Positions 13,801 to 59,773 of a stretch of DNA of 63,998 nt are shown here, one piece after another. The stretch lies in the IMG/VR virus record IMGVR_UViG_3300033134_000083, positions 1 through 63,998 of that record; one strand, 5' to 3'. A program made the translations under genes and the position numbers. The stretch is from a virus (lineage: Duplodnaviria; Caudoviricetes). The notes beneath the pieces were generated by a model. That model was not told the origin of the DNA and ran no database searches. It worked only from the letters and a program-made list of their open reading frames with translations. Numbering within the stretch: position 1 is the stretch's first letter; each line of letters begins with the position of its first letter.

Positions 13801-15371
13801 AGCTACGCAAAGACAACCCCAACGCCCACCGCACCGTTATCGGTCACTCCTACGGCAGCGTCGTCTCCGGTGAAGCAGCCCGCCACCTACCCAACTTCGC
13901 CGACGACCTCGTGCTCATTGGCTCACCCGGCACCTCGGCACACAAAGCAACCGAGTTCAACGTCCCCGACGGTCACGTATGGGTAGGAGCCCACTCCAAA
14001 GACCCCGTAGCTGGCGTATCCCGAGAACTACGCTTCCACTACGGCGGCAGCCCAGCCCGGCCAGCCTTTGGCGCAAAGGTATTCAACTCCGAAGTGCCAG
14101 GGGCTCAGTTCAGCACTCCGCTGCACAGCAGCGTTGGAGTGCTCGGACGAATGTGGCCCCAGACCAGCGAAGCTGACCCCGTAGCCATGTCAGCAGGAGC
14201 GCACTCCAGCTACTGGCGGCCCAACTCCAACGCCTGGAACGCAATGACTGCGATAGCATCAGGCGACCCTATTATCGAAACACCCGGCATTCCCGGCCAG
14301 CCACTCGTCGTAAAAGGCTGGCACGACGCCTGGCTACATGAGTTCCGTGACCCACGTGGCCACTGGGTGCACGAAGGACCACCACCAGCAGTACAGGACA
14401 TGGTCAAACACGGGTGGACGTTCCACGGCACCCCCGGTTCCCACCAGCACGCTAGTTTCCTATCCTCTGCTGCTGACCTAATGCGAAGCCAGCCACAGCT
14501 ACGTCCCCTAGCTGAGACGCTGCGCCGAGCATCAGCGGAGATGAACAAAAAACACCCCGACGTAGCCCACCAAGTACTCCTAGGTGCAGCTAAGCAAACA
14601 CACTTCGCAGCCCTGAAAACCGGTGACGTTAACTTGCGTCACGCAGCATTCGCGTTGCATTACCACGGCGACCTCCTAGACGACTTGCACCTCACCGGTC
14701 GCAGTGACTTGCCGGAAACTCGTGAAGCTGCGGATGCACGCCGCTCCCTGGAAGCCGACCTGAAGTCCGGCCAGCACGACGTTCAATACCCTGGCCATGG
14801 ACAAATGGGCGAAACGTCGTTCGTCCGGTTCAATAACGGTTCCCGGTGGGTGCGTAAAGGTGACGCAGCTATCGACCAAGACCGCGAAATTCTCTCCAGT
14901 CGGGTAGCGGATGCCCTCGGCGCTCGGGCACCGGAAGTTATCCCCGACTCATCATGGAACCCTACCGACAAACACCCCGTTGTCTGGGAGCCCATGCTGC
15001 CGCACCCTACCGCTATCGACTTGGAACGCGGCAAAGACTACGATCCCGACAAAGTGTTCTCCGGCCCTGAAGGTCAGCGAATTGGCGTTCTTGACAAAAT
15101 CATATCCAACCAAGACCGCAACGACGGAAACTGGCTCGTAGACAGTAACGGACTTCCTGTTCCTATCGACCACGGCCAAGCTTACTTTGACAACGACTAC
15201 GCCCCATCCAGCGAGTTTTCCACCAAACTAGACCCGACATCCATTTCGCCTGCGCAATGGGATGAGTGGGCAGGAAAACTCGGCGCTCTCAGCCCAGAGT
15301 TCTCCGCGCTCAACCGAGGAGACTGGTTTCAATCAATGATGCAGTCATTCCAAAGTCTGAGGCCATCATGA
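10860..15371 (+). CDS. MuF (phage head morphogenesis) polyprotein containing an intein and several effector domains
   Basis: WLTAEDEKVCPIC...PPAHVN|CRC MuF motif split by an intein; zincin-like, alpha/beta hydrolase (GHSYGS) and kinase-like (DRNDGN...IDHG) domains; frame is open from CTG 10860 (ORF track start is ATG 10992). Confidence 0.85.
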   Translation: MTTPTTQQQSPPQPSALDDLIALLLLTSPALAAWIATRRSSVRSMTNTRLAQLAAVLRGFQQSALAGEPTNPDDLEHQLNAVLAGPAVLPADQLPEPGSTGNTYRGQPATGPAQSSAANVGQTEVSAAIGAAAHNVYRSDPDVDYSEWLTAEDEKVCPICVANQEAGPVPIGAPFPSGVPFPPAHVNCLPGDALVSARSRITGATSRIYDGELVCIRTLADKLLSVTPNHPVLTDHGWIAAGLLKKGENVVSASESERKPGIDYDNENMPARIQQIAEAFLCSRNVTTAEVPLTAEDFHGDGAGSEVSIIGTYRSLRPVLKTERVQVGGKQPFQCGHMYIARRGFTGLRSSDSPFQRVGISTPSHVSSNSKSATLFGSSLRHADVHAFATPSGLDVVLQQDAADNVTTDAKRFSKRFFALTLGVAVEQVAEVWRVPFSGHVYNLETVDGWYIANGIVTHNCRCTTTPSDYRAVPAFEAQQEAMPMRRFGLPHTSASRERELQNVPSETTVLHVTAELEKGAPEGNISGVTFGPLAKCVSCGCGLPHDDHGDARNITQEDVEAAGAAVGIAPGQAASNIADAWRAMMVDEAGARQADQASKGWHDAWLHELRGGHGEWIGVGGDVPHFAQHGSTHVEVKPLVNGDHEDIKQRVGNQLNHQAQWVPNLAVSYHAHVTPDNEPDSGHHQWGSIVIRQHELSDDQLPHTVAHQMGHAVHDAFQGGAATQYNSKLGDINLWRKLSAALGVKDPPFTPRSHGRGYVTPMVSTDWVRRNRAAIRDQVSNQATANVDEFIAELWDQFTTSPNPSPVAQIFGDYVMQNLPSRTHNPLLGELAMAGGSVGGRRKSMQDYWIAKDLRTAWEHELRDRHGKWAKAVTEALKTAPDAHVASADRNAEHVVFTIGDPKTADHVVTIVPGMNPHWEHLPAETKAASRMKAAVEARTGKKVAAILWAGYKPPQNFASASDKLTAQHAAKDLMRFQRQLRKDNPNAHRTVIGHSYGSVVSGEAARHLPNFADDLVLIGSPGTSAHKATEFNVPDGHVWVGAHSKDPVAGVSRELRFHYGGSPARPAFGAKVFNSEVPGAQFSTPLHSSVGVLGRMWPQTSEADPVAMSAGAHSSYWRPNSNAWNAMTAIASGDPIIETPGIPGQPLVVKGWHDAWLHEFRDPRGHWVHEGPPPAVQDMVKHGWTFHGTPGSHQHASFLSSAADLMRSQPQLRPLAETLRRASAEMNKKHPDVAHQVLLGAAKQTHFAALKTGDVNLRHAAFALHYHGDLLDDLHLTGRSDLPETREAADARRSLEADLKSGQHDVQYPGHGQMGETSFVRFNNGSRWVRKGDAAIDQDREILSSRVADALGARAPEVIPDSSWNPTDKHPVVWEPMLPHPTAIDLERGKDYDPDKVFSGPEGQRIGVLDKIISNQDRNDGNWLVDSNGLPVPIDHGQAYFDNDYAPSSEFSTKLDPTSISPAQWDEWAGKLGALSPEFSALNRGDWFQSMMQSFQSLRPS
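11421..12239 (+). mobile_element. intein 1 (273 aa) in MuF
   Basis: CLPGD block A, VTPNHP block B, SGHVYNLET block F, THN|C block G; removal restores PAHVNCRC. Confidence 0.92.
11424..12179 (-). CDS. antisense HTH + Vsr/DUF559-like PD-(D/E)xK endonuclease inside intein 1 (251 aa)
   Basis: HTH (SEKALAESFGVSRNVIRRIL); SALERLF...Q.AIGPYNADF...VAVEIFGGQWH...LLNAGWHVL. Confidence 0.85.
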   Translation of the reverse strand: MPAKWDPPDLSNLLDRYTKGESEKALAESFGVSRNVIRRILLQNDVKPRGRSESMYVRMAQTTAEERSALTIAANVARRGNTDSLERRIARAQTREAAPSDVHVSALERLFATYLNSLGLEYGTQTAIGPYNADFTTSSVAVEIFGGQWHFSGSHVARAQERFRYLLNAGWHVLVIVVNSRFPLTLASANYVFSFLQETSRNPAMVRQYRMIGGDGKELVSQSADADQLTVVYPRRRTRDTATGRYKGIPR

Positions 15372-17131
15372 TTACGGTTCACACTCAAGCAGGTAAACGC
15401 GGCACCATCCACATCGAAAACAACCGCCTCAAAGGGTCCACCCCTGCACTGCAACGCGTCGCTGACCAAGTACAAAGCCGCATCGGCAGTGCTCAGGACT
15501 CGTACCACTATCTGCTGCGCAGCTCCAATGGTTATGTCCAATACGCGGAAGCAGGCCACCAATCACCCGATTCAGCTAAGGTACAGCTACCCGACTCACA
15601 GGGACGCCCATCGGAGCTATGGATTGCTAAAGAAACTGTAGCCATGCTGGAAGACGTGGAAAAAAGAAAGTCTCCGCGAGGTAACGCTCAAACTTTGCGT
15701 GACTACTGGACCGGCCATGGTCACGGGGGACCCACCCACCACGCATTCGAGCGAGCCATTGCGTGGGGTACGCCCGGTGACTTCGACCGCTGTGTAGCCA
15801 TGGTCACTGAACACGCCAAAATGAGCCCGGAGCACGCCAAGGGCTACTGCGTTACCGAAGACGCTCGCGTGCTTTCGGCTGGAAGCTCACTCCGATTGCT
15901 GGGCAGCTTTGAACGGTATTACATCGGGGATGTCATCGCTATTACTACTTCCACCGGTAACCAGCTCACCGTTACCCCGAATCACCCGATAGCAACACGG
16001 AGCGGCTGGGTTCCGGCTGCGGAACTCCAGCCAGGAGACCACGTCCTGTGCAGCCTCAGCGCTGAACGCATGATACGCCAAGACGAAGATGACATCGTAC
16101 CCCGCATTAAGCAGGTAGCGCAGTCGCTGTCCTTGGCGTTCACCACGGTGACGCGGGCCGTAGATTTCCACGGCGATAGTACCGATGGCGAGGTCCACGT
16201 TGTACGGGCCAACAGCCTTTTGGTGGACGATGCCCTCAACGCCATGCTCGCTGAGCATGCGGGCGAACTGCTCCTCGTCGGAAGCGACCATGGGATTCGC
16301 CTGGCGCGTGCGGGCAGCCTTGAACCGGTTCTTAGCTCCAGTTCCGCCGGGAGTCCCGTAAACGCGGGGCAGGCTAGGGTCAGCTGGTATCCGATGGTCA
16401 GCGGGGATGTGGTTGCGTCGCAGAACGTTGTAGACGCTGCTGATCGAGCAGCCCAAAGCCGAAGCGACTACTTCGGCTTTATCTCCGGAAACGAAGCAGC
16501 TGATGATAGTCGCTTCATCCAGGTCGGCCTGGAACCCGTTATTCGCGTGCCTAATGGCAACGCAGTTTGCTCTCAACACGTCGCTGATGGTGTTCCGGCT
16601 AGCGCCAAGCCGTTGAGCAACGTCGCTAACCTGAAGTCCGGTTTTGTAGAGAGCAACTACCTCGGCGTCCGTGTAAGTCCGGTGACGAACGAAGCCAGCA
16701 GCACGGCGCGGACCACGCTGGACTTCAACGCCTCTCTCGCTGAGAAGCTTCTTTACGGTTCGATGGCTGACTCCGAGACTCGCCGCGATTTTCGTCAGTG
16801 GCTCTCCGTCGATGTAGCGTTGCGCGATGTTGTCTCCGTCGAGCGAAGGTCGTTCAGCGGTCATGTCTACGATCTTAGTACAGATACCGGAGTCTTTACA
16901 GCAGAGACTTTGGTATCTGGCCCGTGCAATCTTCGCCACCATGACGCGCTAGGCATCTGGCCCGCTACCCACGCTAAGGACATTAGGGAAGCAGAAGGCA
17001 AGGAGAAGGTTTCTGCAGCCAGTTTGGCGAAAGTCGGACCGCACGGCTGGGCACATGACTGGAAAGACGTAGACCCTGCGTTACTGGGTTTGGTCAGAAA
17101 AAGAGCAAGCCGACCAAGCGGCCCGGTATGA
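15368..17131 (+). CDS. head-associated protein containing intein 2
   Basis: ATGA overlap with the MuF stop; host reads LRDYWT...AWGTPGDFDRCV...AKGY|CNLRHHDALGIWP once the intein is removed. Confidence 0.75.
   Translation: MITVHTQAGKRGTIHIENNRLKGSTPALQRVADQVQSRIGSAQDSYHYLLRSSNGYVQYAEAGHQSPDSAKVQLPDSQGRPSELWIAKETVAMLEDVEKRKSPRGNAQTLRDYWTGHGHGGPTHHAFERAIAWGTPGDFDRCVAMVTEHAKMSPEHAKGYCVTEDARVLSAGSSLRLLGSFERYYIGDVIAITTSTGNQLTVTPNHPIATRSGWVPAAELQPGDHVLCSLSAERMIRQDEDDIVPRIKQVAQSLSLAFTTVTRAVDFHGDSTDGEVHVVRANSLLVDDALNAMLAEHAGELLLVGSDHGIRLARAGSLEPVLSSSSAGSPVNAGQARVSWYPMVSGDVVASQNVVDAADRAAQSRSDYFGFISGNEAADDSRFIQVGLEPVIRVPNGNAVCSQHVADGVPASAKPLSNVANLKSGFVESNYLGVRVSPVTNEASSTARTTLDFNASLAEKLLYGSMADSETRRDFRQWLSVDVALRDVVSVERRSFSGHVYDLSTDTGVFTAETLVSGPCNLRHHDALGIWPATHAKDIREAEGKEKVSAASLAKVGPHGWAHDWKDVDPALLGLVRKRASRPSGPV
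15848..16924 (+). mobile_element. intein 2 (359 aa), paralogue of intein 1, with a non-canonical C-terminus (VSGP|C)
   Basis: CVTED block A, VTPNHP block B, FSGHVYDLST block F; terminal Asn absent. Confidence 0.85.
15887..16864 (-). CDS. antisense 3xHTH + Vsr/DUF559-like endonuclease inside intein 2 (325 aa)
   Basis: Three HTH repeats (IAASLGVSHRTV, VAQRLGASRNTI, VASALGCSISSV); QKAVGPYNVDLAIGTIAVEIYG...LRYLLNAGYDVI. Confidence 0.85.
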   Translation of the reverse strand: MTAERPSLDGDNIAQRYIDGEPLTKIAASLGVSHRTVKKLLSERGVEVQRGPRRAAGFVRHRTYTDAEVVALYKTGLQVSDVAQRLGASRNTISDVLRANCVAIRHANNGFQADLDEATIISCFVSGDKAEVVASALGCSISSVYNVLRRNHIPADHRIPADPSLPRVYGTPGGTGAKNRFKAARTRQANPMVASDEEQFARMLSEHGVEGIVHQKAVGPYNVDLAIGTIAVEIYGPRHRGERQGQRLRYLLNAGYDVIFVLAYHAFSAEAAQDVVSWLEFRSRNPAAPCCYRVIRGNGELVTGGSSNSDDIPDVIPFKAAQQSE

Positions 17132-24307: not shown

Positions 24308-25492
24308 ATTCGTATTCTCTGGTCGTCTAATGCGCCCTTCGCAGCGACGGGGTATGGAACCCAAACTGCTACCTGGCTACCGAGGATTAAATCGCTTGGC
24401 CATGAAGTAATAGCTGTTGCTCCGCCGTCATTTGCTGGGTCGCCGTTGAACTGGAACGGTATAACGGTTCTTCCTGGGTGGCGGGACGGAATCGGTAACG
24501 ACATTCTGCTAGACCATTACCGTCGCAGCGAAGCCGACGTGCTCATCACGTTGTGCGACGCGTACATGCTGGCACCCGAGATGCTCAGCGAAATGAACGT
24601 AGCCCACTGGCTGCCAGTTGATTGCTACCCTATGAACTTCCGCGACCAGGCCAGCATGAACCAGACCGGTGCGTTGCCGATAGCTATGAGTCAGTTCGGC
24701 CGGGACCAGCTAAAATCAGCCGGGTTTAGTCCGCGTTACATTCCGCACGCTATCGACATTACAACATTCTCACCACCCGCTAACCATAAGAAGCAGCGGG
24801 AAAGCATCGGACTGAGCGACAACACGTTTGTCGTTGGCTTGAACGCTTACAACAAAGACGTAATGCGAAAAGCGTTTGGGGAGCAGATGCTGGCGTTTGC
24901 GGCGTTCCGCAAACGCCACCCTGACTCAATGCTGCTGGTTCACTCCGCTGTGGCTGAACCTACTGCCGTGGACTTGCAAGCCCTAGCTCATGCCTGCGGG
25001 ATAGAAAAAGCTATCCTATTCCCCGACCAGTACAGCTATGCAGTTGGCACGATGACTGCTGAGAACATGGCTTCCTGGTATGGAGCGCTGGACGTTCTCA
25101 CTAACTGCTCCTACGGCGAGGGTTTCGGTCTGCCCATCCTCGAAGCCCAAGCTACCGGCACCCCGGTTGTCGTCACTGACGCTTCGTCCATGACGGAGCT
25201 GTGCGGTAGTGGATGGCTAGTTCCCGGTGATAAATTCTGGGTTCCGGCTCACCGGGGCTGGTGGATGCGACCGGACGTGTCATCCATGACTGCTGCGTAT
25301 GAGTCCGCATGGCAAGCACGCGAAAACGGTACCATGCCCGCGTTGCGGGAAAAGGCCCGCCAGTTCGCCCTCAAATACGACGCCGACGTAGTACTCAAGG
25401 AATGCTTCGCTCCGGTACTGGACGAAATCCAGGGAAACCTTCCAGTCAAAGAAGGTGTCAGCAGTGGCATTCTCCCTGAAACGGTACCATGA
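24308..25492 (+). CDS. GT-B (family 4-like) glycosyltransferase
   Basis: RILWSSNAPFAATGYGTQT N-terminus and EGFGLPILEAQATGTPV signature; requires an ATT/ATA start. Confidence 0.85.
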   Translation: MRILWSSNAPFAATGYGTQTATWLPRIKSLGHEVIAVAPPSFAGSPLNWNGITVLPGWRDGIGNDILLDHYRRSEADVLITLCDAYMLAPEMLSEMNVAHWLPVDCYPMNFRDQASMNQTGALPIAMSQFGRDQLKSAGFSPRYIPHAIDITTFSPPANHKKQRESIGLSDNTFVVGLNAYNKDVMRKAFGEQMLAFAAFRKRHPDSMLLVHSAVAEPTAVDLQALAHACGIEKAILFPDQYSYAVGTMTAENMASWYGALDVLTNCSYGEGFGLPILEAQATGTPVVVTDASSMTELCGSGWLVPGDKFWVPAHRGWWMRPDVSSMTAAYESAWQARENGTMPALREKARQFALKYDADVVLKECFAPVLDEIQGNLPVKEGVSSGILPETVP

Positions 25493-26132
25493 CTTTTACA
25501 ATACCCTCGGCTTTAACCAGTCAAGTGCGTTTATCCAATGGACTATCAAGGAACACGAAGCAGCTATCCTAAGCGAAAACTGCGTCGGTGCTAAATCAGT
25601 AGTCTCAGTGGGAACGTTCGGCGGTCTTTCGGTAGCAATAATCCTGGATGCTATGGCAGACGATGGGATACATTACGGCATCGACCCGTTTTTCCCCAAG
25701 TATTGCGCGCAGGACAATTACCGAGATGTATACGACGCTACTGTCGCTCACTTTCGCCGCCCCGGTCAGCAGACCGTAACCTTTCCTGGGTTTGCTTCCA
25801 TCCCCGGCGAGGAGCTATCCCAAAACGCCAGTGACGGGGAGCCTCCCATTGAGTGGCATCAGCTAAAGCGCGTACCACCCGGCGTGGACGTGTGTTTCAT
25901 CGACGGTGACCATCACGACCCAGTGCCCCTGAATGACTTCCAGGAAGTGTGGCCACTAATTAAGCCCGGAGGCCGCGTCCTCCACCACGACATTTCCAAC
26001 TCGACGTGGGGACCACACGCTGTTTCGCTGCTGAACTACATAAGGGAACTACCGGACGCAGACCTCTGGACTGATACGTCAGGTGAAGACGGAATCGCTG
26101 TAGTAACCAAAAAGGACGTGACCGCTACTTGA
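25455..26132 (+). CDS. class I SAM-dependent methyltransferase (Methyltransf_24-like)
   Basis: VGTFGGLS, GIDPF, FIDGDH and IKPGG..LHHD motifs. Confidence 0.75.
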   Translation: MSAVAFSLKRYHDFYNTLGFNQSSAFIQWTIKEHEAAILSENCVGAKSVVSVGTFGGLSVAIILDAMADDGIHYGIDPFFPKYCAQDNYRDVYDATVAHFRRPGQQTVTFPGFASIPGEELSQNASDGEPPIEWHQLKRVPPGVDVCFIDGDHHDPVPLNDFQEVWPLIKPGGRVLHHDISNSTWGPHAVSLLNYIRELPDADLWTDTSGEDGIAVVTKKDVTAT

Positions 26133-26821
26133 GCGTTGCCATTGTCAGCACCATCTACGACAACTATGACGCACCGTACATTCCACCCGAGCAAGACATC
26201 GAGTGCGAATGGGTCATGGTCACCGACCGGCCTCGTAGCTGCGCACCGTGGCGAGTGGTAACCGAACCAAGGCCGCATCTGCCTCCCCGGCTGGCGGGTA
26301 AAGTGCCCAAGACGCATTCCCGGCATTACACCGATGCTGACGTGGTTATCTGGACTGACGCTAACGTGGAAGTCACAGCTCCAGATTTCGCGTCATGGTG
26401 CGTAGCTCAACTCGGTGACAACCCGCTGAAAGCGTACGTTGACCCAGGTCGCGCTACTGTCCACGAAGAAGCTGCAGCTTCAGCAGTGTCGCCACGTTTC
26501 CACGGCCAGCCGTGCGTCGACCAAGCCGACTTTTATGTGAAGAACGGTTTTCCACCCGACTTTGGCACGTGGTGGACTGGGCTAGTGATTTACGGGCCCA
26601 ACTGCCCGTATTTCGGCGACGAATGGCTGAGTGAAATCACCCGCTGGTCGCTGCAAGACCAGATAGCTATCGGCTACATGTTTTGGCAGTACGGCATAGA
26701 CCCCAAACTAGTGTCTATCAAACCGGACTGGACCCGTCCCGACAACGGTTACGGAGGCTGGCACGGCCGAGACGGCGTGCACGACAAGTTCCGCATGCAT
26801 AACCACCGGCATGACCTATGA
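26129..26821 (+). CDS. DUF616-like GT-A glycosyltransferase
   Basis: STIYDNYD, IWTDAN and QDQI motifs. Confidence 0.65.
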   Translation: MSVAIVSTIYDNYDAPYIPPEQDIECEWVMVTDRPRSCAPWRVVTEPRPHLPPRLAGKVPKTHSRHYTDADVVIWTDANVEVTAPDFASWCVAQLGDNPLKAYVDPGRATVHEEAAASAVSPRFHGQPCVDQADFYVKNGFPPDFGTWWTGLVIYGPNCPYFGDEWLSEITRWSLQDQIAIGYMFWQYGIDPKLVSIKPDWTRPDNGYGGWHGRDGVHDKFRMHNHRHDL

Positions 26822-27705
26822 AAGCACTCGTCACTGGCGACAAGGGTTTCATCGGCAGCCACGTTGCCAGTGAACTAAAATCCCGTGGCTACGAAGTGCA
26901 CGGCTACGACCTAGTTGACGACCGGGATGTGCGTAACCTACGTGGCGGCAGCCGCTACGACCTGATTATTCACTGCGCTGCCGTAGTCGGCGGACGACGG
27001 GTCATGGACTGGACCCCGCTGGAGCACGCAGTCAACCTGGCCATTGACGCGGCGTTGTTCCAGTACGCCCACCGTATTCGCGCTGGCCGCGTGGTGTACT
27101 TCTCTAGTTCCTGCGCATACCCCGCCATCTTGGGGGCTATCAACGGCCGGAAACTAGCCGAAGGCGACATCAACCTGGCTCAGCCACGGTGGCCGGACCA
27201 GCTTTACGGCTGGACCAAACTCACCGGGGAGCTACTCGCCCAAACAGCACGCGAAGCTGGCGTGCCTGTAAGCGTGGTACGGCCGTTCTCGGTGTACGGC
27301 CCACGTATGCGTGAAGGCTTCGCTGTCCGAGGCTTCCTGGAGCAGGTACAGCGCCGTAAAGACCCCGTCTCAGTTTGGGGTAACGCCGACCAGGTTAGGG
27401 ACTACATCCACGTAGCCGATGTAGCTAAGGCTGTAGCCACAGTAGCCGAGCAGCACATCGACGGCCCGGTCAATTTGGGCACTGGCGTTGGCACATCCCT
27501 AGCCGAACTAGTAGCCATGATGAGTGAAGCAGCAGGCTACGCTCCGACTGTGGAAGTGAACCGTGACATGCCCGCTGGTTACCCGTACCTCGTTGCGGAC
27601 GCCAAACTGCTGCACACGTTCTGCCCGCCGAGAATGGCGCTGGAAACCTACCTAGCTGAGGTGCTGGATGCTCGTCATGGTGCCGTCCAGGGAACGTCCC
27701 CGTAA
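26818..27705 (+). CDS. NAD-dependent epimerase/dehydratase
   Basis: VTGDKGFIG, SSSCAY, YGWTK and RDYIHVAD motifs. Confidence 0.9.
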   Translation: MKALVTGDKGFIGSHVASELKSRGYEVHGYDLVDDRDVRNLRGGSRYDLIIHCAAVVGGRRVMDWTPLEHAVNLAIDAALFQYAHRIRAGRVVYFSSSCAYPAILGAINGRKLAEGDINLAQPRWPDQLYGWTKLTGELLAQTAREAGVPVSVVRPFSVYGPRMREGFAVRGFLEQVQRRKDPVSVWGNADQVRDYIHVADVAKAVATVAEQHIDGPVNLGTGVGTSLAELVAMMSEAAGYAPTVEVNRDMPAGYPYLVADAKLLHTFCPPRMALETYLAEVLDARHGAVQGTSP

Positions 27706-28330
27706 CGTAGCCCGGTTCGCTCAGGCAGCCCAGCAAACCGCTACCACGGCTGACGTTGTGTTCATCTTTGATGAAGACGACCCGCTCCTAGCCGAATCCA
27801 TCAAAGCAGCAGGACCGTGGCGTTACGTCACCCAGCCACGCATGATTACCGTGCCTAAGGTTAACCACTTTGCTATGGCTAACTTGGACTACCCAGTGCT
27901 CATGTTCGCTGGCGACGACTGCATACCCCAAACCAAAAGCTGGGATGAACAACTAGCCGACGCTGCCGCAACTGGTTACGCCTACCCCAACGGACTAGGC
28001 CGCACCGACATACCAGAACACGTAGCTATCCGCAGTGACATAGTCGAAGCCTTGGGCTGGTTCATGCTGCCTGTTTTGTCCCACTACTACACGGACAACG
28101 CCTGGGCTGACCTAGGCAACGGCGCCAAATGCATTACGTACCTGTCTGACGTGGTTTTGGAGCACCGTAACCCGCTGTACCGCAAAGGCCCCAAAGACCA
28201 CGTCCTCAGGATGGCTGAACTACGCGGCGACGCCGACCGAGCTGCATACCAGCAATGGCACGACGACGGCTTTGCTGATGATTTGAAAACAGTGCAGCAG
28301 GTTACTGCCGGATCAAAACTTCAAGGATAG
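27668..28330 (+). CDS. GT-A (family 2-like) glycosyltransferase
   Basis: VPSRERP, FAGDD and HYYTDN motifs. Confidence 0.75.
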   Translation: MLVMVPSRERPRNVARFAQAAQQTATTADVVFIFDEDDPLLAESIKAAGPWRYVTQPRMITVPKVNHFAMANLDYPVLMFAGDDCIPQTKSWDEQLADAAATGYAYPNGLGRTDIPEHVAIRSDIVEALGWFMLPVLSHYYTDNAWADLGNGAKCITYLSDVVLEHRNPLYRKGPKDHVLRMAELRGDADRAAYQQWHDDGFADDLKTVQQVTAGSKLQG

Positions 28331-28335
28331 CCCCC

Positions 28336-28605
28336 ATGCCCCGCATTTCGCTCCCTCCCGGCTGTTACGGAGCCAAACTCCCTACCCGTGAAGTAAACGA
28401 CAAACCCGGTGGTCACATCACCGTGACCGACCAGGAAGCACGCTGGATAGCTAACAGTAGTAATGGCCAGCTAGGCATCCTTTCCGCCACTCAAGCGCTT
28501 AGCTTCGGCACAAAGAAGAGCCGGTTGTGCCCTAGCTGTGCTCGGTTGTGGAATGCGTGGTCGGCTGAGTGCCCTCGTTGTGGGGCTGAGACTCAGGAAG
28601 CATAA
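28336..28605 (+). CDS. small zinc-ribbon protein
   Basis: CPSC...CPRCG. Confidence 0.6.
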   Translation: MPRISLPPGCYGAKLPTREVNDKPGGHITVTDQEARWIANSSNGQLGILSATQALSFGTKKSRLCPSCARLWNAWSAECPRCGAETQEA

Positions 28606-28726
28606 GCACTTCAACGCAATTGCCGTTTTCAGCGCTAAACGACGGCTTCTTCCATTCAGCTGGCGGTAGCACCTCAACGCAATTGCCGTTGAGGTTGCTC
28701 AAGGAAGATTTTCTCCAACTATTCAC
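28532..28726 (-). CDS. leaderless DUF397-like peptide with a tandem motif
   Basis: WRKSSLSNLNGNCVEV followed by WKKPSFSAENGNCVEV; TATAGT 7 nt before GTG. Confidence 0.7.
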   Translation of the reverse strand: MNSWRKSSLSNLNGNCVEVLPPAEWKKPSFSAENGNCVEVLMLPESQPHNEGTQPTTHSTTEHS

Positions 28727-29610: not shown

Positions 29611-29903
29611 CGTATCTTCTCTGGCTACCGTCGGGACTGTGGCCCGCTTCTTGTCTGGCTTTCGTTTTCACCGTGAGCCTGCCTGGCGTTCGATAGGCTC
29701 TGGAAACTGCAAGCTTGATGGCTTTCGCAACATCTCTGGCTTTCGCACCCTTTCTGGGATGCTGCAACGACGATGGCTACCGTTCCACCCCTGAGCCGCC
29801 GGTTCGCTGGCTATCGCATCACCTTTGGGCGGTTACTTACCTTAGCTATCGCGCGAGCGCTGGCTAAGGACCGCGCTGTATCTGGCTATGGTTGCAATCA
29901 TGG
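29611..29903 (-). repeat. TIGR-like dual-repeat array A (about 17 CCA-N9-CG modules, partly degenerate)
   Basis: Alternating CG(at/aa/gt)agCCA and short CG/CA..CCA repeats separated by 9-nt unique spacers; TATAGT at 29917-29922. Confidence 0.75.
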
Positions 29904-29940
29904 GTTACATTTTTTAACTATACCCCTAGGACGGAGGTCC

Positions 29941-30873
29941 TTGGCCGTATATGGACCGGGCACTCCGTATCTGACCCCTCAGCTGCTGACGAATGCGCCG
30001 ACTGGAATAACGTGGAAATCAATTCCGAATCCACGGGCTACACCACCTGAGCAATATGCTGAGCAAATCAATATATGTGCCCGTGCTACCAGCATAGTTG
30101 ACACCGCGTGTAACCAAGTAATACGTGCCACCATTGACACGGAAACTCATTACGGCCCTGACTATTACGTCACTATCAATAGCCAGACTGGCGTTGGTCG
30201 CATCGAGTTGCAACGCTGGCCCATTGTTCAAGTACTTGGTGGGCAGTGGAACAGCGCTGCTACGTTCCCACCGGACTGGCAGCCCATCGCTGAGAACCAG
30301 TTCGCTATCGAACGTCCCATCATCGGTCTCTACGGCACGTCAGCACCGTCTGACGCTGGCGAAGGCGGCCAGGCTGTCCTGGTAGCACCCGGCTACCTAA
30401 CGTGGGCTTACGGACGCCGTGGTATACAGATCCAAGTTCAGTACGTCAACGGCTGGCCGCACACATCGCTGACGGTAGCTGCGACGGCTGGTAGTTCCGT
30501 AGTTCAAGTAGATGACTGCACCGGCTGGGCTCCCGTTACGTCCGGCGGCCAGGGCGCAACGGGAGTCCTTAAAGACTCATCCGACCAAGAACCCGTCACG
30601 GTAACAGCAGCCAGCACTACGGCCGGTCCCGGAACTTTGACGCTAGCGTCGCCGCTAGAGTTCGGTCACGGCGCTGGGGTACTGCTCACCACCATTCCAG
30701 AACAGCTTCAGCAAGCCACTATCCTGTTCGCTGCTGCTCAAGCACTTGTCCGGGGTGCGACCGCCACCACCATTCAAACCATTAGCGGCACCGGTCAGGC
30801 TACAGCCGCAGGAGCGGACGAGCTAAACCAGCAAGCCAGGGCTCTTTGCGTGCCATACAAGAGAGTTTGGTGA
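29941..30873 (+). CDS. head-to-tail adaptor-like protein
   Basis: PYLTP...ICARATSIVD...Y.NGWPH...IPEQLQQATIL...PYKRVW; GGAGGTCC-TTG start. Confidence 0.7.
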   Translation: MAVYGPGTPYLTPQLLTNAPTGITWKSIPNPRATPPEQYAEQINICARATSIVDTACNQVIRATIDTETHYGPDYYVTINSQTGVGRIELQRWPIVQVLGGQWNSAATFPPDWQPIAENQFAIERPIIGLYGTSAPSDAGEGGQAVLVAPGYLTWAYGRRGIQIQVQYVNGWPHTSLTVAATAGSSVVQVDDCTGWAPVTSGGQGATGVLKDSSDQEPVTVTAASTTAGPGTLTLASPLEFGHGAGVLLTTIPEQLQQATILFAAAQALVRGATATTIQTISGTGQATAAGADELNQQARALCVPYKRVW

Positions 30874-32389: not shown

Positions 32390-33682
32390 ATGACTGCGAT
32401 AGTCATCGCAACGCCGCAGCCTGTTTTCCCAGTCTCTGAGCGTTTTGTCGGCATTGCCCGGGAAACTACCTACGGTACTGCGGTCAACCCTGCCTACACT
32501 ATACCTCTCACTTCGTTCACCCCGTCCGACAAACCCGTATGGGTTATGGACGAAGCATGGCGTGGTGCCATGGCGGGCGAGTACGACATGCTGCAGGGTC
32601 CCATCTGGGCTGAGACAGCGTTCGCTGGTCCGGTATACGGCGACACGGTTGGGCACCTGCTTTATAACATCTTGGGAGATTATACCCAGTCAGCTACCAG
32701 CACTACGCCCACTACGACGCTGTCGTCAGCAGTCGCGTATGGGGTGGGCACCATTCCCGTAGCTACCGGTACGTCATTCACCAACGGTATGTATGTGGAA
32801 GTGTTCCAGAGTGGGAGCACCGGCCCGGCTGAAATCTGCCAGGTATCCAGCTCCACGTCAACTACTATCGTGTTCTCGGCTGCTACACCCATTCGGTTTG
32901 CCCACTCGTCTGGTGCGACCGTCACAAACACGAACGTGTCGGCTGGCACCTACACCAACACGTTTACGTTGCTGAACGGAACTGTAGGCCAGGACGCTAT
33001 GGGCGCCGGTCAGCCACCAAGCCACACCTTCACCGACCGCACCCAAGTACCAGGGTCCGCAGGCAACCTCGCCGCTCAGTACGCGTTTGGGTGTTTGTCG
33101 CAGCTAACCCTAACGGGTAGCGCCCAGGGAATTTTTATGCACTCAGGGAACCTGACCAGCTTCTCCTACGCACAACCTAGCGCTGCGCCCACCGCTAACG
33201 TGTCCTCGGTGCGTGCTACGCCAAACTGGCGCTCCACCATCGGCGTCAACGGAACCGTGTCCGGCTCCCCCGTGGACGACATCACCGAATGGGAGTTCGC
33301 GCTGAACCGAGTCGTGGAACCCATCCCCACCACGGACGGTACGCAGTCGCCATACACCATAGCCCGAGGCAAGTTCACTGCTACCGCGAAGCTTACGTTC
33401 CAGCCTAGCGTTGACTTGTCTGCGCTGACTTACATGTTGAACAACACTCAGCCGCAGCTACAAATCATCTACTCAAACGGCCTATCGGGTACCAGTAACA
33501 TTACGTACACGATTAATGTTCAGCTAGGTGCGTTCGACACGGCTAACATCAACGAGTCTTCGGCACTGTTCGGGTACGACGTAACCGCTAAGCTGATTGC
33601 TAACACCACGAACGGCATTGGCTGGTCCGGTAGTTACTCACCAATCAGCATTGCTATAGCTAATTCGATTCCAGTTTACTGA
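32390..33682 (+). CDS. major tail tube protein with Ser/Thr-rich insertion
   Basis: VGIARETTYGTAV N-terminus; PPSHTFTD; position in the operon. Confidence 0.8.
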   Translation: MTAIVIATPQPVFPVSERFVGIARETTYGTAVNPAYTIPLTSFTPSDKPVWVMDEAWRGAMAGEYDMLQGPIWAETAFAGPVYGDTVGHLLYNILGDYTQSATSTTPTTTLSSAVAYGVGTIPVATGTSFTNGMYVEVFQSGSTGPAEICQVSSSTSTTIVFSAATPIRFAHSSGATVTNTNVSAGTYTNTFTLLNGTVGQDAMGAGQPPSHTFTDRTQVPGSAGNLAAQYAFGCLSQLTLTGSAQGIFMHSGNLTSFSYAQPSAAPTANVSSVRATPNWRSTIGVNGTVSGSPVDDITEWEFALNRVVEPIPTTDGTQSPYTIARGKFTATAKLTFQPSVDLSALTYMLNNTQPQLQIIYSNGLSGTSNITYTINVQLGAFDTANINESSALFGYDVTAKLIANTTNGIGWSGSYSPISIAIANSIPVY

Positions 33683-34653: not shown

Positions 34654-35159
34654 CCCCAGACGAGCTACCCGCCTACATGGACGCATTGCTTAGCCGGGTC
34701 AACGAAGGAGGTCGCGCTGCATGCGACGGAATGGTCGCTGCTTTCGACAAAGGCATTAAAAGCGACGAGCTGATTCGCACTACCGGGCATCCGTCAGCAC
34801 CAGGTTCCCCGCCAGCGCTGGAAACAGGGCGGCTACGGGCTAGTTTCCGCATCAAGCACGCTGAAGAGATAGGCGCTTACCGGTGGCGTTCATCGGATGC
34901 ACCGAACACAGTTTACGCACACATCCAGGAATACGGCGGAGATATTTGGGCTAAACATACGTATGTGGACAAGCGCACTGGTGTGACCCGTCCCGGCTTC
35001 CTTCGATGGAAGGGTGGGGACGGGGGCTTTCATTTTGCCCGCCACGTTCACCTACCCAAACGCCCGTACATGCACCCGGCAGCTATCAGAATGAGTGGAG
35101 ACGGCACCCTGCGTAAAGGTGCCGTCTCCGGTTTCGAGCGCGAAATGGGCTGGGATTAA
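34650..35159 (+). CDS. HK97 gp10-like neck/tail completion protein
   Basis: SAPGSPPALETGRLRAS, YAHIQEYGG and PKRPYM.PA motifs. Confidence 0.75.
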   Translation: MTPDELPAYMDALLSRVNEGGRAACDGMVAAFDKGIKSDELIRTTGHPSAPGSPPALETGRLRASFRIKHAEEIGAYRWRSSDAPNTVYAHIQEYGGDIWAKHTYVDKRTGVTRPGFLRWKGGDGGFHFARHVHLPKRPYMHPAAIRMSGDGTLRKGAVSGFEREMGWD

Positions 35160-35243
35160 CGAATCCGGTACTTGCCCCGAACTGGTGGCTTCTCACCCGC
35201 CCGAACCTGTTCGTCGTAGGCGTTGGCGTATAACTGCTCCGCG

Positions 35244-35501
35244 TTAACGCGAGTGCCATGCGGAGCGTTCGTCGCAGCCAGCCGCTGAAGGCGAACAAAA
35301 GGTTGTTCCGCCGAAGCGTCCATCAGCTGTTTCGTACTGGACCGTCCTCAGTACGTCGCCCCTGAGGTCGCTCATAGCCCGTGCAACGCGGACAGCTTCA
35401 GCCAGAATTTCGTCCGGCGCAGCATCCTCGGAGACAACGGTACCGGTGCTCAGCTTACGTACAACTTCGAACTTGACGGTAACGTCCACTTGTTCGTTCA
35501 C
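35244..35501 (-). CDS. hypothetical protein (antisense insert)
   Basis: GTGA overlap with the upstream minus-strand gene. Confidence 0.45.
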   Translation of the reverse strand: MNEQVDVTVKFEVVRKLSTGTVVSEDAAPDEILAEAVRVARAMSDLRGDVLRTVQYETADGRFGGTTFCSPSAAGCDERSAWHSR

Positions 35502-35935
35502 CACCTTCCCGTTGCTGGAAAGTGCATCTCCAGCGTGTCGTCCACTTTGTGGTGCCGCCCCTGAGGCTGCGGCAGCGGCTTCGTATCCATTGCCCGGTGC
35601 CATGTAGCTACCAGAGGCGGTTGCGCCGCCTGCGTAGCCCTGGAGCTCGTACGGGTGACTATCCAAGCGACGCTGCGAACCACGACAGCAGTGATAGCTC
35701 CGAGGGTGGCGAGCACCCAAGCAGCGAACATGACCGTACGCCGGTCCATGAACACCCGCCGGAATATCAGCGCTGCGTCCCTGAGCATGATGAACGGCAA
35801 CGCTAGCCCCACGGTGGCGAACACCAGCGGCCACGGCATCCAAACCACCGTCTGCCTGCGGTAACGCCGCTTCGGTTGACGTGCGTACGAACCTCTCAGC
35901 AGCTCACTGCGCTGAGAGGTTGTGTTCCTTTCCAT
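35498..35935 (-). CDS. membrane protein (antisense insert)
   Basis: Two hydrophobic helices; lies downstream of promoter motif copy 4. Confidence 0.6.
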   Translation of the reverse strand: MERNTTSQRSELLRGSYARQPKRRYRRQTVVWMPWPLVFATVGLALPFIMLRDAALIFRRVFMDRRTVMFAAWVLATLGAITAVVVRSVAWIVTRTSSRATQAAQPPLVATWHRAMDTKPLPQPQGRHHKVDDTLEMHFPATGRW

Positions 35936-35960
35936 GATTCCCTCATTTCGTCTCGTACGT

Positions 35961-35990
35961 GTAAACACCTAGCGTACTCTGATTATTTCC
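35961..35990 (-). promoter_or_regulatory. GGAAATAA-N16-GTTTAC promoter-like motif, copy 4
   Basis: Exact motif and spacing. Confidence 0.7.
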
Positions 35991-36012
35991 CGTTTAGGGG
36001 GTGGTGACTGAG

Positions 36013-38659
36013 GTGCCGAGTCTGGAAGATGTGACTCAGCGCTTCTTAGGAAGCGTTCATCGCTGATGTTGCCGAGTATGTAGGCCCCCTGCGCGACGCT
36101 ATCGTCGCGGCGAAGGAGTTCGCTGACGCTAACCACCAAGACGATGATGCGCTGGAGGAGCTAAGAAGCGAACTAGACCGCACCCGTGAGTCCCTGGTTG
36201 ACGTACGCACTGCGCTAGATGAGACGCGGGACTCAATCAGCCACTTGGATAAGTCGGTTGAAACCCTGGCGCTAGCTATGGCGCATACTAGGGATGACAC
36301 CGAAGAAACCGCTGAAGCCATGGACCAGCTACGGGACCATGGCGAGGAAGCAGCCGAGTCACTCAAGCAAGTCCGTGACGCATCCATCGAAGACGACGTT
36401 GCGCTTGACGGGGTACGGGACCGAGCCGAAGAATCAGCCAGTGCTCTAAGCCGACTACGCGACAAAGCCATCGAAGCTGCTGGTGCGCTCACCGGGTTGG
36501 GAGCTGCTGCCGATGCCGCTAAGGGTGCGGATGCTGCAGGTGGCGGCGGTATGGGCGGCATGGTCTACCTCATCGGCGCTCTTGTCATTGCTATCGCTGG
36601 TGTGCTCCCCGCAGTAGCCGCTATGGGAGCATCCATTGGCGCTTTCGCTGGATTTGCTATCCCCACCTTTGAGAAAGTCTGGAAAGCAGCCTCTTCCGGC
36701 AAAGCAGCTATCGACGCGCTACCCGCACCGCTAAGGACAGCCGCCGAGGAACTAAAAGGTCTCGAAAACGAGTACCTCAGGTTTGCTAAAGCGTTCCAAA
36801 CTCCGGTAGCGCAAATCATGTCCCAAGCGCTGGGAATTGCTTCCGACATTTTGCCCAAGTTCATACCATTGGCAATGGCGGGCGCTAAAGCGGTCAGCGC
36901 ATTGCTAACTGTACTTGACCAGGGCCTGCGTTCCACCGGTTTCACTGATTTCCTGGCCCTTATGACTAAGATGGCCGTGCCCGCTACGATAGCGATTACG
37001 CACTTGCTTGGCGCCCTTATGGGATTCCTGGGAACGGTCATTCGGGAAGTAGCACCAGCGTCCATTCCGTTCACCAACTTCTTGACCACTATCGTCAAGG
37101 ACCTGACTGGGCCGCTGGCTGCTGCGCTAAAGCTAGGCGTGGAACTGCTCACCGGCTTGGGTAAAGCACTCGAACCGCTGCTGCCGATGCTGATGACGTT
37201 TGCGTCGGTACTGCTGAATGACGTGGGCAGCAGCTTCATGGAATTGGTGCCGCTGTTCAAAACGCTAGCCACTGATTTGGTACCAGCGTTGCACGCAGCG
37301 ATTAAAGGCATCGAGCCAGTTTTCGCTAACTTGCTGACACCCAACAGCCCACTCCTTTCGGCGTTCGCTGCGCTACTCAAAGTGCTGCCCGATGTGGTTA
37401 AAGCCTTTACCCAGTTGATGAACTTTATTGACACCCACCCATTTATGACCAGAATAGCAGTCGACATTCTATCCACTGTTGGCGCTATTTTTGCGTTCCA
37501 GAAAGTTATCGGGCTTGTCGCCGTTGCTCTAAAGCTCCTGCTAGCTCCCGTCATGGCCATTGTGGACGCCATGAAAGCACTGAACTTGGCGTTTGGTTTG
37601 TCCGACCCCGTACTAGCCCTCATCGTTATCGCCATCGCTGCGCTAGCTGTTGGGCTGTACGAACTGTACGAACACTCCAAACTAGTACGCGACATTGTTC
37701 ACGACGTAGCCCAAGCGTTGAAAACCGCTTGGGACACAGCTCTGCACGCAGCAGGCGACGTAGTGAGGTGGTTCATTTCCGGACCCCTGGCTGCCATTAA
37801 AAGTGCTATAGCTGATTTGGCTGCTTGGTGGAAAACTCACGGCCAAGCCATGGAAGAAGTGGCTAAAGTTATCTGGACAGCCATTTCCACTGACATTAAG
37901 GTAGCGTGGGACCTCATTGTTGCAGTCCTGAAGGTAGGGATGGCGGTTCTGCAAGCTGTCTGGGGTGTAGCGTGGGCCATCATAAAAGGCGTCGTTGAAA
38001 CCGTCTGGAACGTTATTAAGACTATTGTGGATGATACTTTCCACGAAATACTAGACATTGTTGGAATCATCCTAGACTTGCTGACTGGGCACTGGCACCA
38101 AGCCTGGGAAGACATGAAAGCTCTTGTCAGCACAGTCCTCAATGAAACTGTTGATGTTATTGGGGAAATTCTGCGTGGCTTGGTTAGTACCATGTACAAC
38201 GCAGGAGTGGCAGCTATCATGGGGTTGGTGCACGGTATCGAGTCCGTAGCTGGCGACGTAAAGTCAGCTATCGGCGGCATCGCTCACGATATTGCCGGAG
38301 CTATCGGGCTTTCCCCAGCCGAGTATGGGCCGCTGTCCGGTTCCGGTGCACCGGAAATCCGTGGTCGCCACTTCTCCGAAGCACTTGCCCAGGGCATCAT
38401 CTCAGGACGAGCAGCAGTGCAAGGAGCTATCCGCTCTCTATCCGGCACTATGGCCTACGGTGGCGTAGGCGGCTCCATGACGGGAGCTACAAGTGCTGGG
38501 GTACACGTCACTGTCCCGGTCACCATGGCCCCAGGAATGGGGGCTCTCACGTCACCCCAGTTCCTCCAAGGCATCCAGCCAGTTGTCCAGGAAGCCATCC
38601 TGAGGTATGTGCAACTCAACCAGAGCAGCGGCATAGCCGCTTACAACCGACGTTCCTAG
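36013..38659 (+). CDS. tape measure protein, with a frame discontinuity at 36046-36058
   Basis: Long Ala/Leu-rich helical protein with W-periodic repeats and SPAEYGPLSG; main frame is open from 36050 but has no canonical start until 36245. Confidence 0.85.
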
Positions 38660-49215: not shown

Positions 49216-49239
49216 TTATGCACCCTCCGCCCAACTCAG

Positions 49240-49311
49240 CGGCCCTGGAGGGAATCGAACCCCCATTTACGGTTCCGTAGACCGCAGCTCTATCCGTTGA
49301 GCTACAGGACC
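49240..49311 (-). tRNA. tRNA-Arg(ACG)
   Basis: 72-nt cloverleaf; GGTCCTG/CAGGGCC acceptor stem, CT-ACG-GA loop, GTTCGATTC T-arm. Confidence 0.9.
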
Positions 49312-52650: not shown

Positions 52651-53332
52651 TCCGTTCCCCTTTTCCTACTTGGTAGCAATCTGGTGCCAATGCGAAAGGA
52701 TGTAGAAAATAGTGTCTATAGCTGGCGCAATAAGCCCCCAGATAATAGCGTGAAGTACGGTAACAAGAACTGGGCCACCAAGCAGCAAAGCTATCTTAAC
52801 CCCAATGCCAGCAGTTACGATGCGCTTTAGTTTCTCGTACCAGTCCCGTAGCATCGTTTCCCTTTCCCTAAAGGTTAGCTTAGCCCATTGCCGCCAGCGG
52901 CGCCGTCTTTTTCGCCAGCCCAGCGTGCGGCTTCTTGCACAGCAATCATAGTTTCGATGACGTGTTCGCGTAGCTCCGGGTCATCAAGTCCGCATGGAAC
53001 ACAGATGAGGAACTCGGTAAGCCCAGGATACGGGTTTGGCTGAGCCGAATCGCGGTAGACCGGCTGCTGGCAACGGCTGCATGCGTCCACAACAGCAGTA
53101 GCTACAGGTTTGCCGTTCATTTCCGCTACCCGTGGGCATATGCGAGCTACAACATCCTGTTCCGCGTCCACACTGTTCCCTTTCGAAAGCTTTAAGGCAA
53201 GGAGAGACCCCCTGAGCCGCACTACTAAGATGTTCAGTCCTTTCGCCAAGGCTTGCGTGCCCTGCCGGGCACACGTACGTCTCTCCCTGCAGGTGGCACA
53301 CTACTTAATCTTCGCCGTGTGCTAGGGCGGCG

Positions 53333-53404
53333 TCGGGATGGGCTGGATTGAACAGCCGACCTCTCGGTCCCAGGCCGAGTGCTCTACTACTGAGCTACAT
53401 CCCG
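53333..53404 (-). tRNA. tRNA-Pro(TGG)
   Basis: 72-nt cloverleaf; CGGGATG/CATCCCG acceptor stem, CC-TGG-GA loop (C at position 33). Confidence 0.8.
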
Positions 53405-59697: not shown

Positions 59698-59773
59698 GGG
59701 GTGTTAGCACAATGGTTAATGCAGCGTCCTTTTAAGTCGTGGATTCCGGGTTCGAATCCCGGGCACCCCACCA
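59698..59773 (+). tRNA. tRNA-Lys(TTT)
   Basis: 76 nt with encoded CCA; CT-TTT-AA loop; GGTTCGAATCC. Confidence 0.9.

Follow-up and report, generated by a model that had tools for sequence, protein, structure and literature searches.

A candidate UUA-triggered translational bypass at the start of the tape measure gene of an uncultivated phage

Described bypass systems and the window locus

To our knowledge, the natural genes that require translational bypassing are very few: gene 60 of phage T4 and its relatives, genes in Magnusiomyces mitochondria, and three terminase genes of Streptomyces phages or prophages. Here we describe a candidate for this small group, the interrupted start of the tape measure protein (TMP) gene of an uncultivated phage from wetland metagenomes, which lies in the IMG/VR record IMGVR_UViG_3300033134_000083; the whole 63,998-nt stretch that was analysed is called the window. 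A first-pass annotation had proposed that ribosomes hop from one TTC codon to another across a short gap that begins with TTA, and all its coordinates and sequence statements (the GTG at 36013, the TTC, the TTA, the gap, the landing TTC and the TGA) agree with the window base for base.

The closest precedent is the terminase gene of the Streptomyces phage phiHau3, for which Smith and colleagues reportedly described a UUA-linked bypass in 2013. According to the excerpts of Antonov et al. 2023 (PMC10732093) used throughout this text, the large terminase gene of phiHau3 is split by two 10-nt inserts starting with UUA, two prophage terminase genes (StrepC.1 and S. catenulae) have one insert each, 7 nt long in S. 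catenulae, and this type of insert occurs in only 3 of 100 terminase genes. The same excerpts report that the full-length terminase is produced in Streptomyces, that the junction peptide was detected by mass spectrometry in E. coli with the UUA replaced by UAA, and that a +1-frame stop codon in the gap left recoding undiminished; the authors also remark that UUA-triggered bypassing had been largely unnoticed for ten years (PMC10732093). The type rests on one phage that has been studied at the bench. In the phiHau3 record, we read the two sites as GGC TTA CTC C GGT AAG and TCT TTA ACG G TCC ACG, each with a pair of codons for one tRNA placed 10 nt apart. The precedent that the first-pass annotation had named for Streptomyces phages is sound, and the phiHau3 sites show the same anatomy as the window site.

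This likeness extends to several features. At both loci, a short frame-disrupting insert is absent from collinear homologues and has UUA as its first codon, one tRNA reads both the take-off and the landing codon, a zero-frame stop comes a few codons later, and UUA is otherwise avoided by the phage. The phiHau3 type also has a local hairpin that draws the landing codon near; one is predicted here too, but it is no more stable than the folds of shuffled sequences. In contrast to phiHau3, the gene in the window encodes the TMP instead of the terminase and is interrupted at codon 11/12, right after initiation. The displacement is 13 nt in the window and 11 nt in a second carrier, the metagenome contig locus L003, rather than 10 or 7 nt, and the TTC/TTC pair is identical while the phiHau3 pairs are synonymous. 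Furthermore, the insert length varies between the two carriers, the inserts here and in phiHau3 are alike only in the TTA, and the phages belong to different lineages. On this anatomy, the window TMP gene appears to be a case of phiHau3-type bypassing in another gene and not a new kind of decoding, which would provide a second, unrelated gene of this type in two natural lengths.

The other described systems are more distant in design. In T4 gene 60, the gap is 47-50 nt, a UAG stop codon follows the take-off codon GGA, and a nascent-peptide signal and a 5' stem-loop take part. The window locus shares with it the matched take-off and landing codons and, as predicted or proposed here, the retention of the peptidyl-tRNA and a take-off hairpin; a 5' stem-loop that folds while the mRNA exits the ribosome is possible, and a Shine-Dalgarno (SD)-like element precedes the landing site of the window. 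It differs from gene 60 in the gap of 10 or 8 nt, the sense codon TTA in the A site and the nascent chain of 11 residues, and no mobile-element context was seen around the window TMP start. The features that define the gene 60 type (a gap of ~50 nt, a stop after take-off and a nascent-peptide signal) were not found, nor were those of a programmed frameshift, namely a conserved slippery sequence and a single direction.

Slow or 'hungry' codons also provoke hops in E. coli (Weiss et al. 1987; Gallant and Lindsley; cited in PMC10732093). There, as proposed here, the peptidyl-tRNA detaches at a slow A-site codon and re-pairs at a nearby cognate triplet, but those hops are low-level errors in reporters or over-expressed genes, whereas the present case concerns an essential virion protein and two natural genes. 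The 'byps' of Magnusiomyces capitatus mitochondria (Lang et al. 2014; cited in PMC10732093) are similar as well. Like the insert described here, they are short, hairpin-forming coding inserts skipped between matching codons, but they are numerous and mitochondrial, whereas a search of the window for further copies of the insert with up to 3 mismatches returned 1 match, the site itself. Byps span 27-55 nt. A literature search linked bypassing to no tape measure gene; in the one paper where the two terms co-occur, 'tape measure' refers to the G-T frameshift.

The insert, its contiguous relatives and the second carrier

The GTG codon at 36013-15 opens 11 codons, GTG CCG AGT CTG GAA GAT GTG ACT CAG CGC TTC, encoding MPSLEDVTQRF (Table 1), and the stretch TAGGGGGTGGTGA at the SD-like site ahead of them is identical in L003. 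The TMP frame, +1 relative to these codons, stays open from 36050 until its stop codon at 38657-59. It had been claimed that about 65 codons of this frame pass without a canonical start, and its first ATG, GTG or TTG is indeed TTG 36245, 65 codons past 36050 and 63 past the landing codon; in L003, 46 codons past the landing codon lack one. The identity of the gene, also proposed at first pass, is supported by a match of its open reading frame (ORF) to the tape measure family PHROG 58 (E 8.5e-41) and to 13 other TMP PHROGs, by tblastn matches to annotated phage TMPs, and by its location in the tail gene block, where a minor tail protein gene lies upstream. The PHROG 58 match begins at residue 31 of the open frame, i.e., upstream of TTG 36245.

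A search of 5.8 billion proteins for TMP relatives gave five informative sequences (P0002-P0006). In P0002-P0005, the N-terminus reads [MVL]P[SG]L[DP]D[VI][TV]Q[RK]F and continues directly with [IV]AD[VT], and P0006 reads MADELEPVNQVF-TAD, equally uninterrupted. A contiguous junction of the QRF-IAD type is found in P0002, P0003/L002, P0004 and P0005/L015, and QxF-[IT]A[DE] in more distant relatives. Altogether, the junction is uninterrupted in at least 8 distinct relatives: the four just named, P0006, a group of four near-identical contigs (L016-L019), all with contiguous N-termini, and L020 and L098. In these relatives, the Phe is followed directly by I/V/T, A and D/E, with no variation in length. 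The DNA of L002 reads CAG CGC TTT ATA GCG GAC without a break, and its alignment with the window shows that the latter carries exactly 13 extra nt. These homologues indicate that the 11 codons from GTG 36013 are the true N-terminus of the TMP family and that the window resumes it at F-IADVAEYVGPL. Contiguity of QRFIAD in relatives that lack the 13 nt is what the first-pass annotation had predicted; it would have been undermined by homologues without the MPSLEDVTQRF segment, but they carry MPSLxDVTQRF.

Megablast against phage records returned no near-identical phage, and tblastn against them returned only distant TMP matches with <60% identity, none over 80% of the query, which are annotated TMPs of Streptomyces and Mycobacterium phages. 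A scan of viral contigs with the single protein returned no relative, and the metagenome scan yielded at least 594 stretches and at least 10 relatives. The bare pattern, in which a codon and TTA are followed within 60 nt by the same codon in another frame opening a long ORF, occurs 47 times in the window, mostly as out-of-frame TTA inside long genes. Since the pattern is this common, the significance of the site rests on homology. Five window gene starts inspected for further sites of TTA plus a matched codon gave nothing convincing.

The TMP of L003 is 58.6% identical in amino acid sequence to that of the window over the 630 open codons of L003. Its start reads GTG CCG GGT CTA GAT GAT GTG ACT CAG CGC TTC TTA GCG CGT TCA TAG, and its TMP frame picks up at TTC ATA GCC GAT. 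L003 therefore carries 11 extra nt at the same codon boundary, as TTC (2993-95), TTA (2996-98) GCG CG and TTC (3004-06). The gap is 10 nt in the window (TTAG-GAA-GCG) and 8 nt in L003 (TTAG-C-GCG), corresponding to displacements of 13 and 11 nt and to frame changes of +1 and +2/-1, respectively. The two gaps have common ends and different middles, and the two carriers agree in the take-off TTC, the TTA and the landing TTC. In each of them, the first Phe-cognate triplet downstream of the take-off codon is the landing TTC, and the codon after it, ATC in the window and ATA in L003, encodes the Ile of F-IAD. Because the frame changes are opposite, one direction of frameshifting cannot serve both genes while a TTC-to-TTC hop can, and the two insert lengths thus provide comparative evidence that separates hopping from frameshifting. 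A strong and conserved SD precedes the 11 upstream codons, which conform to the family consensus in the window and L003 alike and show S/G and E/D changes of the kind seen in the contiguous relatives. The zero-frame tails are unrelated and not conserved, ending in LGSVHR* in the window and, after 15 codons in total, in LARS* in L003. Together, the contiguous homologues and the 11-nt insert at the same codon support the bypass interpretation given at first pass. When we scanned for more carriers with a 22-nt pattern taken from before the gap, there were 0 matches in viral contigs and 0 in genome contigs; further carriers beyond the window and L003 may exist. A gapped pattern across the insert matched 9 + 44 stretches, which were rejected as chance matches, with the DVTQRF context present in 0 of the 53.

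The segment that has no canonical start shows the mark of translation. Over the 42 codons that align between the window and L003 from the landing codon to the first canonical start, the proportion of nonsynonymous differences (pN) is 0.182 and that of synonymous differences (pS) is 0.687 (20.5 changes at 29.8 synonymous sites), compared with a pN of 0.283 and a pS of 0.702 over 552 codons of the rest of the gene. Judged by these substitutions, the stretch is clearly under purifying selection as coding sequence, and the low pN relative to pS implies that it is translated in the TMP frame even though it offers no canonical start in that frame. The TMP frames are intact over 867 codons in the window and 630 in L003.

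TTA is rare in this phage. The 11 long plus-strand genes of the window contain no in-frame TTA among 8,343 codons, in comparison with 165 out-of-frame TTA (121 + 44) and 146 in-frame CTA. In a wider set of 55 greedily chosen ORFs, TTA accounts for 17 of 17,649 codons (0.96 per 1000) and is the rarest Leu codon, with 301 CTA and 224 TTG, and these 17 are mostly in doubtful ORFs or ahead of likely true starts. The TMP frames themselves have none (0/867 in the window and 0/630 in L003). The caveat made at first pass, that TTA occurs occasionally in other genes, consequently holds for the greedy set and fails for the 11 long genes. The absence of TTA in frame against 165 out of frame indicates that this codon is counter-selected in the window phage, yet it is kept at the junction in both carriers. 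Streptomyces phages in general 'usually entirely lack UUA', according to the excerpts cited above (PMC10732093).

The insert is reproduced in independently assembled contigs. Logan contigs of two runs from two samples cover 35700-36700 with 0 differences at depths of 6.3 and 10, which answers the possibility of an assembly artefact that had been named as fatal to the proposal; either sample may be the source of the window contig, and the agreement shows reproducibility with another assembler, not independence of samples. One of the two runs also contains an L003-type Logan contig of 4617 nt (run X1; window 35995-36049), which ends 6 nt after the TTAG. This end at the interruption may reflect micro-heterogeneity or simply low depth.

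In addition, folding of a 121-nt context predicts a 5' helix that pairs the start-codon region with the 13 nt ending at the take-off codon. The same helix is predicted in both carriers, with z -3.0 in the window (0 of 200 shuffles as good) and z -1.47 in L003; the consensus of the two sequences has 20 pairs, of which 2 are kept through a one-sided change and 0 show compensatory changes. It is speculative to assign this predicted structure a role similar to that of the 5' stem-loop of gene 60. The local fold of L003 is a different 5-bp hairpin, GCGCU-UCUU-AGCGC, which ends one base ahead of the landing codon.

The proposed hop and competing explanations

We suspect that the window TMP is made by a UUA-triggered hop from TTC to TTC, which would yield an 877-aa protein collinear with its relatives, and we consider this the probable course of events. 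Ribosomes would initiate at GTG 36013, synthesise MPSLEDVTQRF and pause when peptidyl-tRNA-Phe sits on TTC 36043-45 and the A site holds the rare TTA. The tRNA would then release, 13 nt of mRNA would pass through the ribosome, with the small hairpin helping the movement or compacting the RNA, and the same tRNA would re-pair at the first cognate triplet downstream, TTC 36056-58. Decoding would restart at ATC 36059 to give a TMP of 11 + 866 = 877 aa with the family N-terminus, and ribosomes that decode the TTA would end at TGA 36064 after 17 residues. The hop product is expected to release the tryptic peptide FIADVAEYVGPLR, whose first residue is the Phe of the take-off codon and which is preceded by VTQR. 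We infer both the hop and its efficiency from the sequences compared above. The arrangement could tie TMP and tail output to scarce charged tRNA-Leu(UAA) in an actinomycete host, by analogy with the proposal made for the phiHau3 terminase, and TMP decoding may in this way be linked to host tRNA-Leu(UAA)/bldA status. It could also serve simply to keep the output of a low-copy virion protein low. The TMP is needed in few copies per virion.

A quite different reading dispenses with the hop. The interrupted frame would be a leader ORF of 17 codons in the window and 15 in L003, and the TMP would arise by termination-reinitiation or weak initiation at the Ile codon beside the leader stop, at ATC 36059 in the window or at ATA 3007-09, which overlaps TAG 3008-10, in L003, and would lack its first 12 residues. 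Such coupling tolerates any frame relation, so that the 13 nt and the 11 nt both fit. AGGAAG lies 5 nt ahead of ATC 36059, the leader TGA lies 2 nt past that codon, the L003 ATA overlaps the leader stop, and the strong nucleotide conservation of the SD and first codons would suit a leader that is needed for coupling. Nevertheless, we regard this reading as quite improbable: AUC and AUA are very poor bacterial start codons, L003 has no SD-like sequence before its ATA, and the kept TTA, the duplicated TTC and the TMP consensus of the first 11 residues in both carriers are left unexplained, while the phiHau3 precedent was resolved as bypassing in the excerpts of PMC10732093. Ribosomal frameshifting within the insert, programmed or adventitious, would instead produce a four-residue insertion, QRF-LxAF-IAD, through a +1 shift in the window and a -1 shift in L003. 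The frames overlap for some codons, shifting anywhere between 36050 and 36064 would bring ribosomes back into the TMP frame, and the resulting insertions would be similar (L-E/G-A-F in the +1 frame of the window and L-S-A-F in the -1 frame of L003). However, two related genes would have to shift in opposite directions at the same site, the window site has neither an X XXY YYZ slippery heptamer nor an RF2-like CUU-UGA context, and a simple +1 slip at the TTA pause is blocked at once by TAG 36047-49. The constant length of the junction in the contiguous relatives also speaks against such an insertion, and we give frameshifting very little credence.

Alternatively, the insert could be a tolerated lesion, such that TMP synthesis begins at a downstream start (TTG 36245 or ATG 36278 in the window, GTG 3142 in L003) without ~75 residues, the genomes are defective, or minority genomes supply the TMP. 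The source pipeline did start the gene at ATG 36278 (P0001), contigs hide minor variants, and the L003-type Logan contig that breaks off shortly after its TTAG might mean local heterogeneity. This explanation also seems unlikely, since the codons from the landing site up to the first canonical start show purifying selection and align with all relatives, the TMP frames are intact throughout, two runs have the insert form as their consensus at a depth of 6-10, and the same rare arrangement is unlikely to arise in two phages by random lesion. Two further candidates were rejected: an mRNA intron or archaeal-type splice, because of the short length (11-13 nt) and the bacterial host, and transcriptional slippage, because there is no homopolymer run.

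Several observations nevertheless weigh against the TTC-to-TTC hop or narrow its support. The Logan evidence consists of contigs, in which a minor subpopulation without the insert would be hidden. The hairpin CGCTTC-TTAG-GAAGCG that was proposed at first pass does form in the minimum free energy (MFE) fold of the 51-nt window context (-15.5 kcal/mol), but its stability is not significant against shuffled sequences (17 of 200 as good, z -1.31), and the local hairpin of L003 is matched by 103 of 200 shuffles (z 0.15). The L003 gap also lacks the SD-like AGGAAG of the window gap. With a nascent chain of 11 residues at the hop, there is probably no gene 60-like nascent-peptide signal, and drop-off becomes a danger. 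Among the matches listed, the window and L003 are the only carriers, and in the TMP tree the window pairs with the uninterrupted P0002 (100/98), with L003 outside this pair, so that two changes are required to account for the interrupted state. Similarity between the two carriers is highest from the SD to the insert (83-88% nucleotide identity compared with ~50-75% elsewhere), and the upstream 10 codons differ by 1 synonymous change as opposed to saturation just downstream. This similarity may reflect an RNA-level constraint on the recoding or initiation region, or the 5' end with its insert may have been moved by recombination between co-occurring phages; in the latter case, the selection argument would span less time with the insert in place. 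Even then, if the insert prevented production of an essential virion protein, it would hardly be expected to spread and to remain the consensus form.

A broader and more doubtful possibility, which we offer tentatively, is that short, UUA-headed, hairpin-forming inserts form a recurrent, exchangeable regulatory cassette in actinomycete phages. Inserted behind codon 11 of the TMP gene, it would make tail production, and through it virion production, conditional on a shortage of charged tRNA-Leu(UAA) in the host, i.e., on developmental state, with landing by scanning and with the 5' stem-loop possibly driving the movement. If this were true, the two insert lengths of 13 and 11 nt would show that ribosomes land at the first cognate triplet and not after a fixed step, and the stem-loop that reaches from the start codon to the take-off codon may be what drives the mRNA forward. 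A hop at the window site would offer a compact cassette of ~50 nt for reporter work on take-off triggered by a slow sense codon. It would also show how gene callers shorten such genes, with 793 aa called and 877 aa predicted here, and searching actinophage genomes for TTA plus a matched codon at breaks of homology may reveal more cases.

Feature coordinates, neighbouring genes and probable host

Table 1. Positions of the proposed bypass elements and of the tRNA genes in the window
Feature	Position	Strand	Remark
SD-like GGGGGTGG	35996..36003	+	9 nt before GTG 36013
Predicted 5' stem-loop GAGGUGC.GAGUC / GACUC.GCGCUUC	36010..36045	+	spans start codon, ends at take-off codon
TMP coding segment 1, GTG + 10 codons, take-off codon last	36013..36045	+	matches first 11 residues of P0002-P0005
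Predicted local hairpin CGCTTC-TTAG-GAAGCG	36040..36055	+	MFE fold; landing codon directly after stem, beside take-off codon
Take-off codon TTC (Phe)	36043..36045	+	last codon aligning with homologues ahead of insert
TTA (Leu), A-site codon at take-off	36046..36048	+	proposed slow-decoding trigger
Coding gap, 10 nt, TTAGGAAGCG	36046..36055	+	with landing codon, the 13-nt insert; DNA alignment with L002 and L003
TAG in +1 frame, overlapping TTA	36047..36049	+	same TTAG in L003
SD-like AGGAAG inside gap	36048..36053	+	2 nt before landing codon, 5 nt before ATC 36059
Landing codon TTC	36056..36058	+	homology to relatives (F-IADV) picks up here
TMP coding segment 2, ATC to stop 38657-59, 866 codons	36059..38659	+	aligns end to end with P0002-P0006
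Zero-frame stop TGA, after TTA GGA AGC GTT CAT CGC	36064..36066	+	17-residue peptide if TTA decoded
Gene as called by source pipeline, 793 aa from ATG 36278 (P0001)	36278..38659	+	shortened annotation
tRNA-Arg(ACG)	49239-49311		
tRNA-Pro(TGG)	53332-53404		
tRNA-Lys(TTT)	59698-59773		

The window is an entire IMG/VR viral contig, which is linear, with a CheckV completeness estimate of 77% and a G+C content of 57.3%. It encodes a portal protein (6846-9701) and head proteins, a minor tail protein identified by profile match upstream of the TMP gene (32390-33682), and further large proteins in the tail region. The host is probably an actinomycete, because relatives of the portal and the TMP are located in actinomycete genomes: the portal has relatives in Actinoallomurus vinaceus (60%), a Streptomyces sp. 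(51%) and a Cellulomonadaceae metagenome-assembled genome (MAG; 52%), and a TMP relative was found in a Streptosporangiaceae MAG. A search of the window for tRNA genes gave the three in Table 1, none of them for Leu and hence none for Leu(UAA).

Ahead of the TMP gene, a small divergent ORF occupies 35244-35968 on the minus strand, and no tail-chaperone G/GT genes precede the TMP; judged by eye from its sequence, the small ORF probably encodes a membrane protein. A perfect 9-bp inverted repeat, CCTCTCAGC and GCTGAGAGG, lies in the spacer at 35897-35922, and a scan of 35150-36150 for promoter and terminator consensus sequences returned 0 sites. In the more distant relatives on the viral contigs L016-L020, a same-strand gene (RPYMRPVHRRM, ending in RRLVP*) directly precedes the TMP gene and slightly overlaps it (~150-600 nt before the TMP starts), so that the gene order there is unlike that of the window.

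Elsewhere in the structural region, two very large overlapping plus-strand ORFs of 1459 and 621 aa, with an overlap of 106 nt, span 10992-17131. Each has a match to PHROG 15127 'head protein', the first resembles the C-terminal part of a portal profile as well, and the pair may have arisen by duplication or fusion of head-decoration-like modules. Between the head and tail gene blocks, glycosyltransferases and a nucleotide-sugar epimerase are encoded at 24446-28330, which suggests glycosylation of the virion or of the host surface. Two gene-poor stretches within the structural region contain repeats that may be regulatory. At 28605-28717, two direct-repeat copies of ~50 nt, 63 nt apart, share AGCAC(T/C)TCAACGCAATTGCCGTT, and at 29611-29816, four 20-nt copies of CGC..CT.TCTGGCT.TCG occur within ~200 nt, just before and inside the start of the ORF at 29773-30873. 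This ORF has four in-frame TTA among its first 48 codons, and its true start is probably downstream of 29914.

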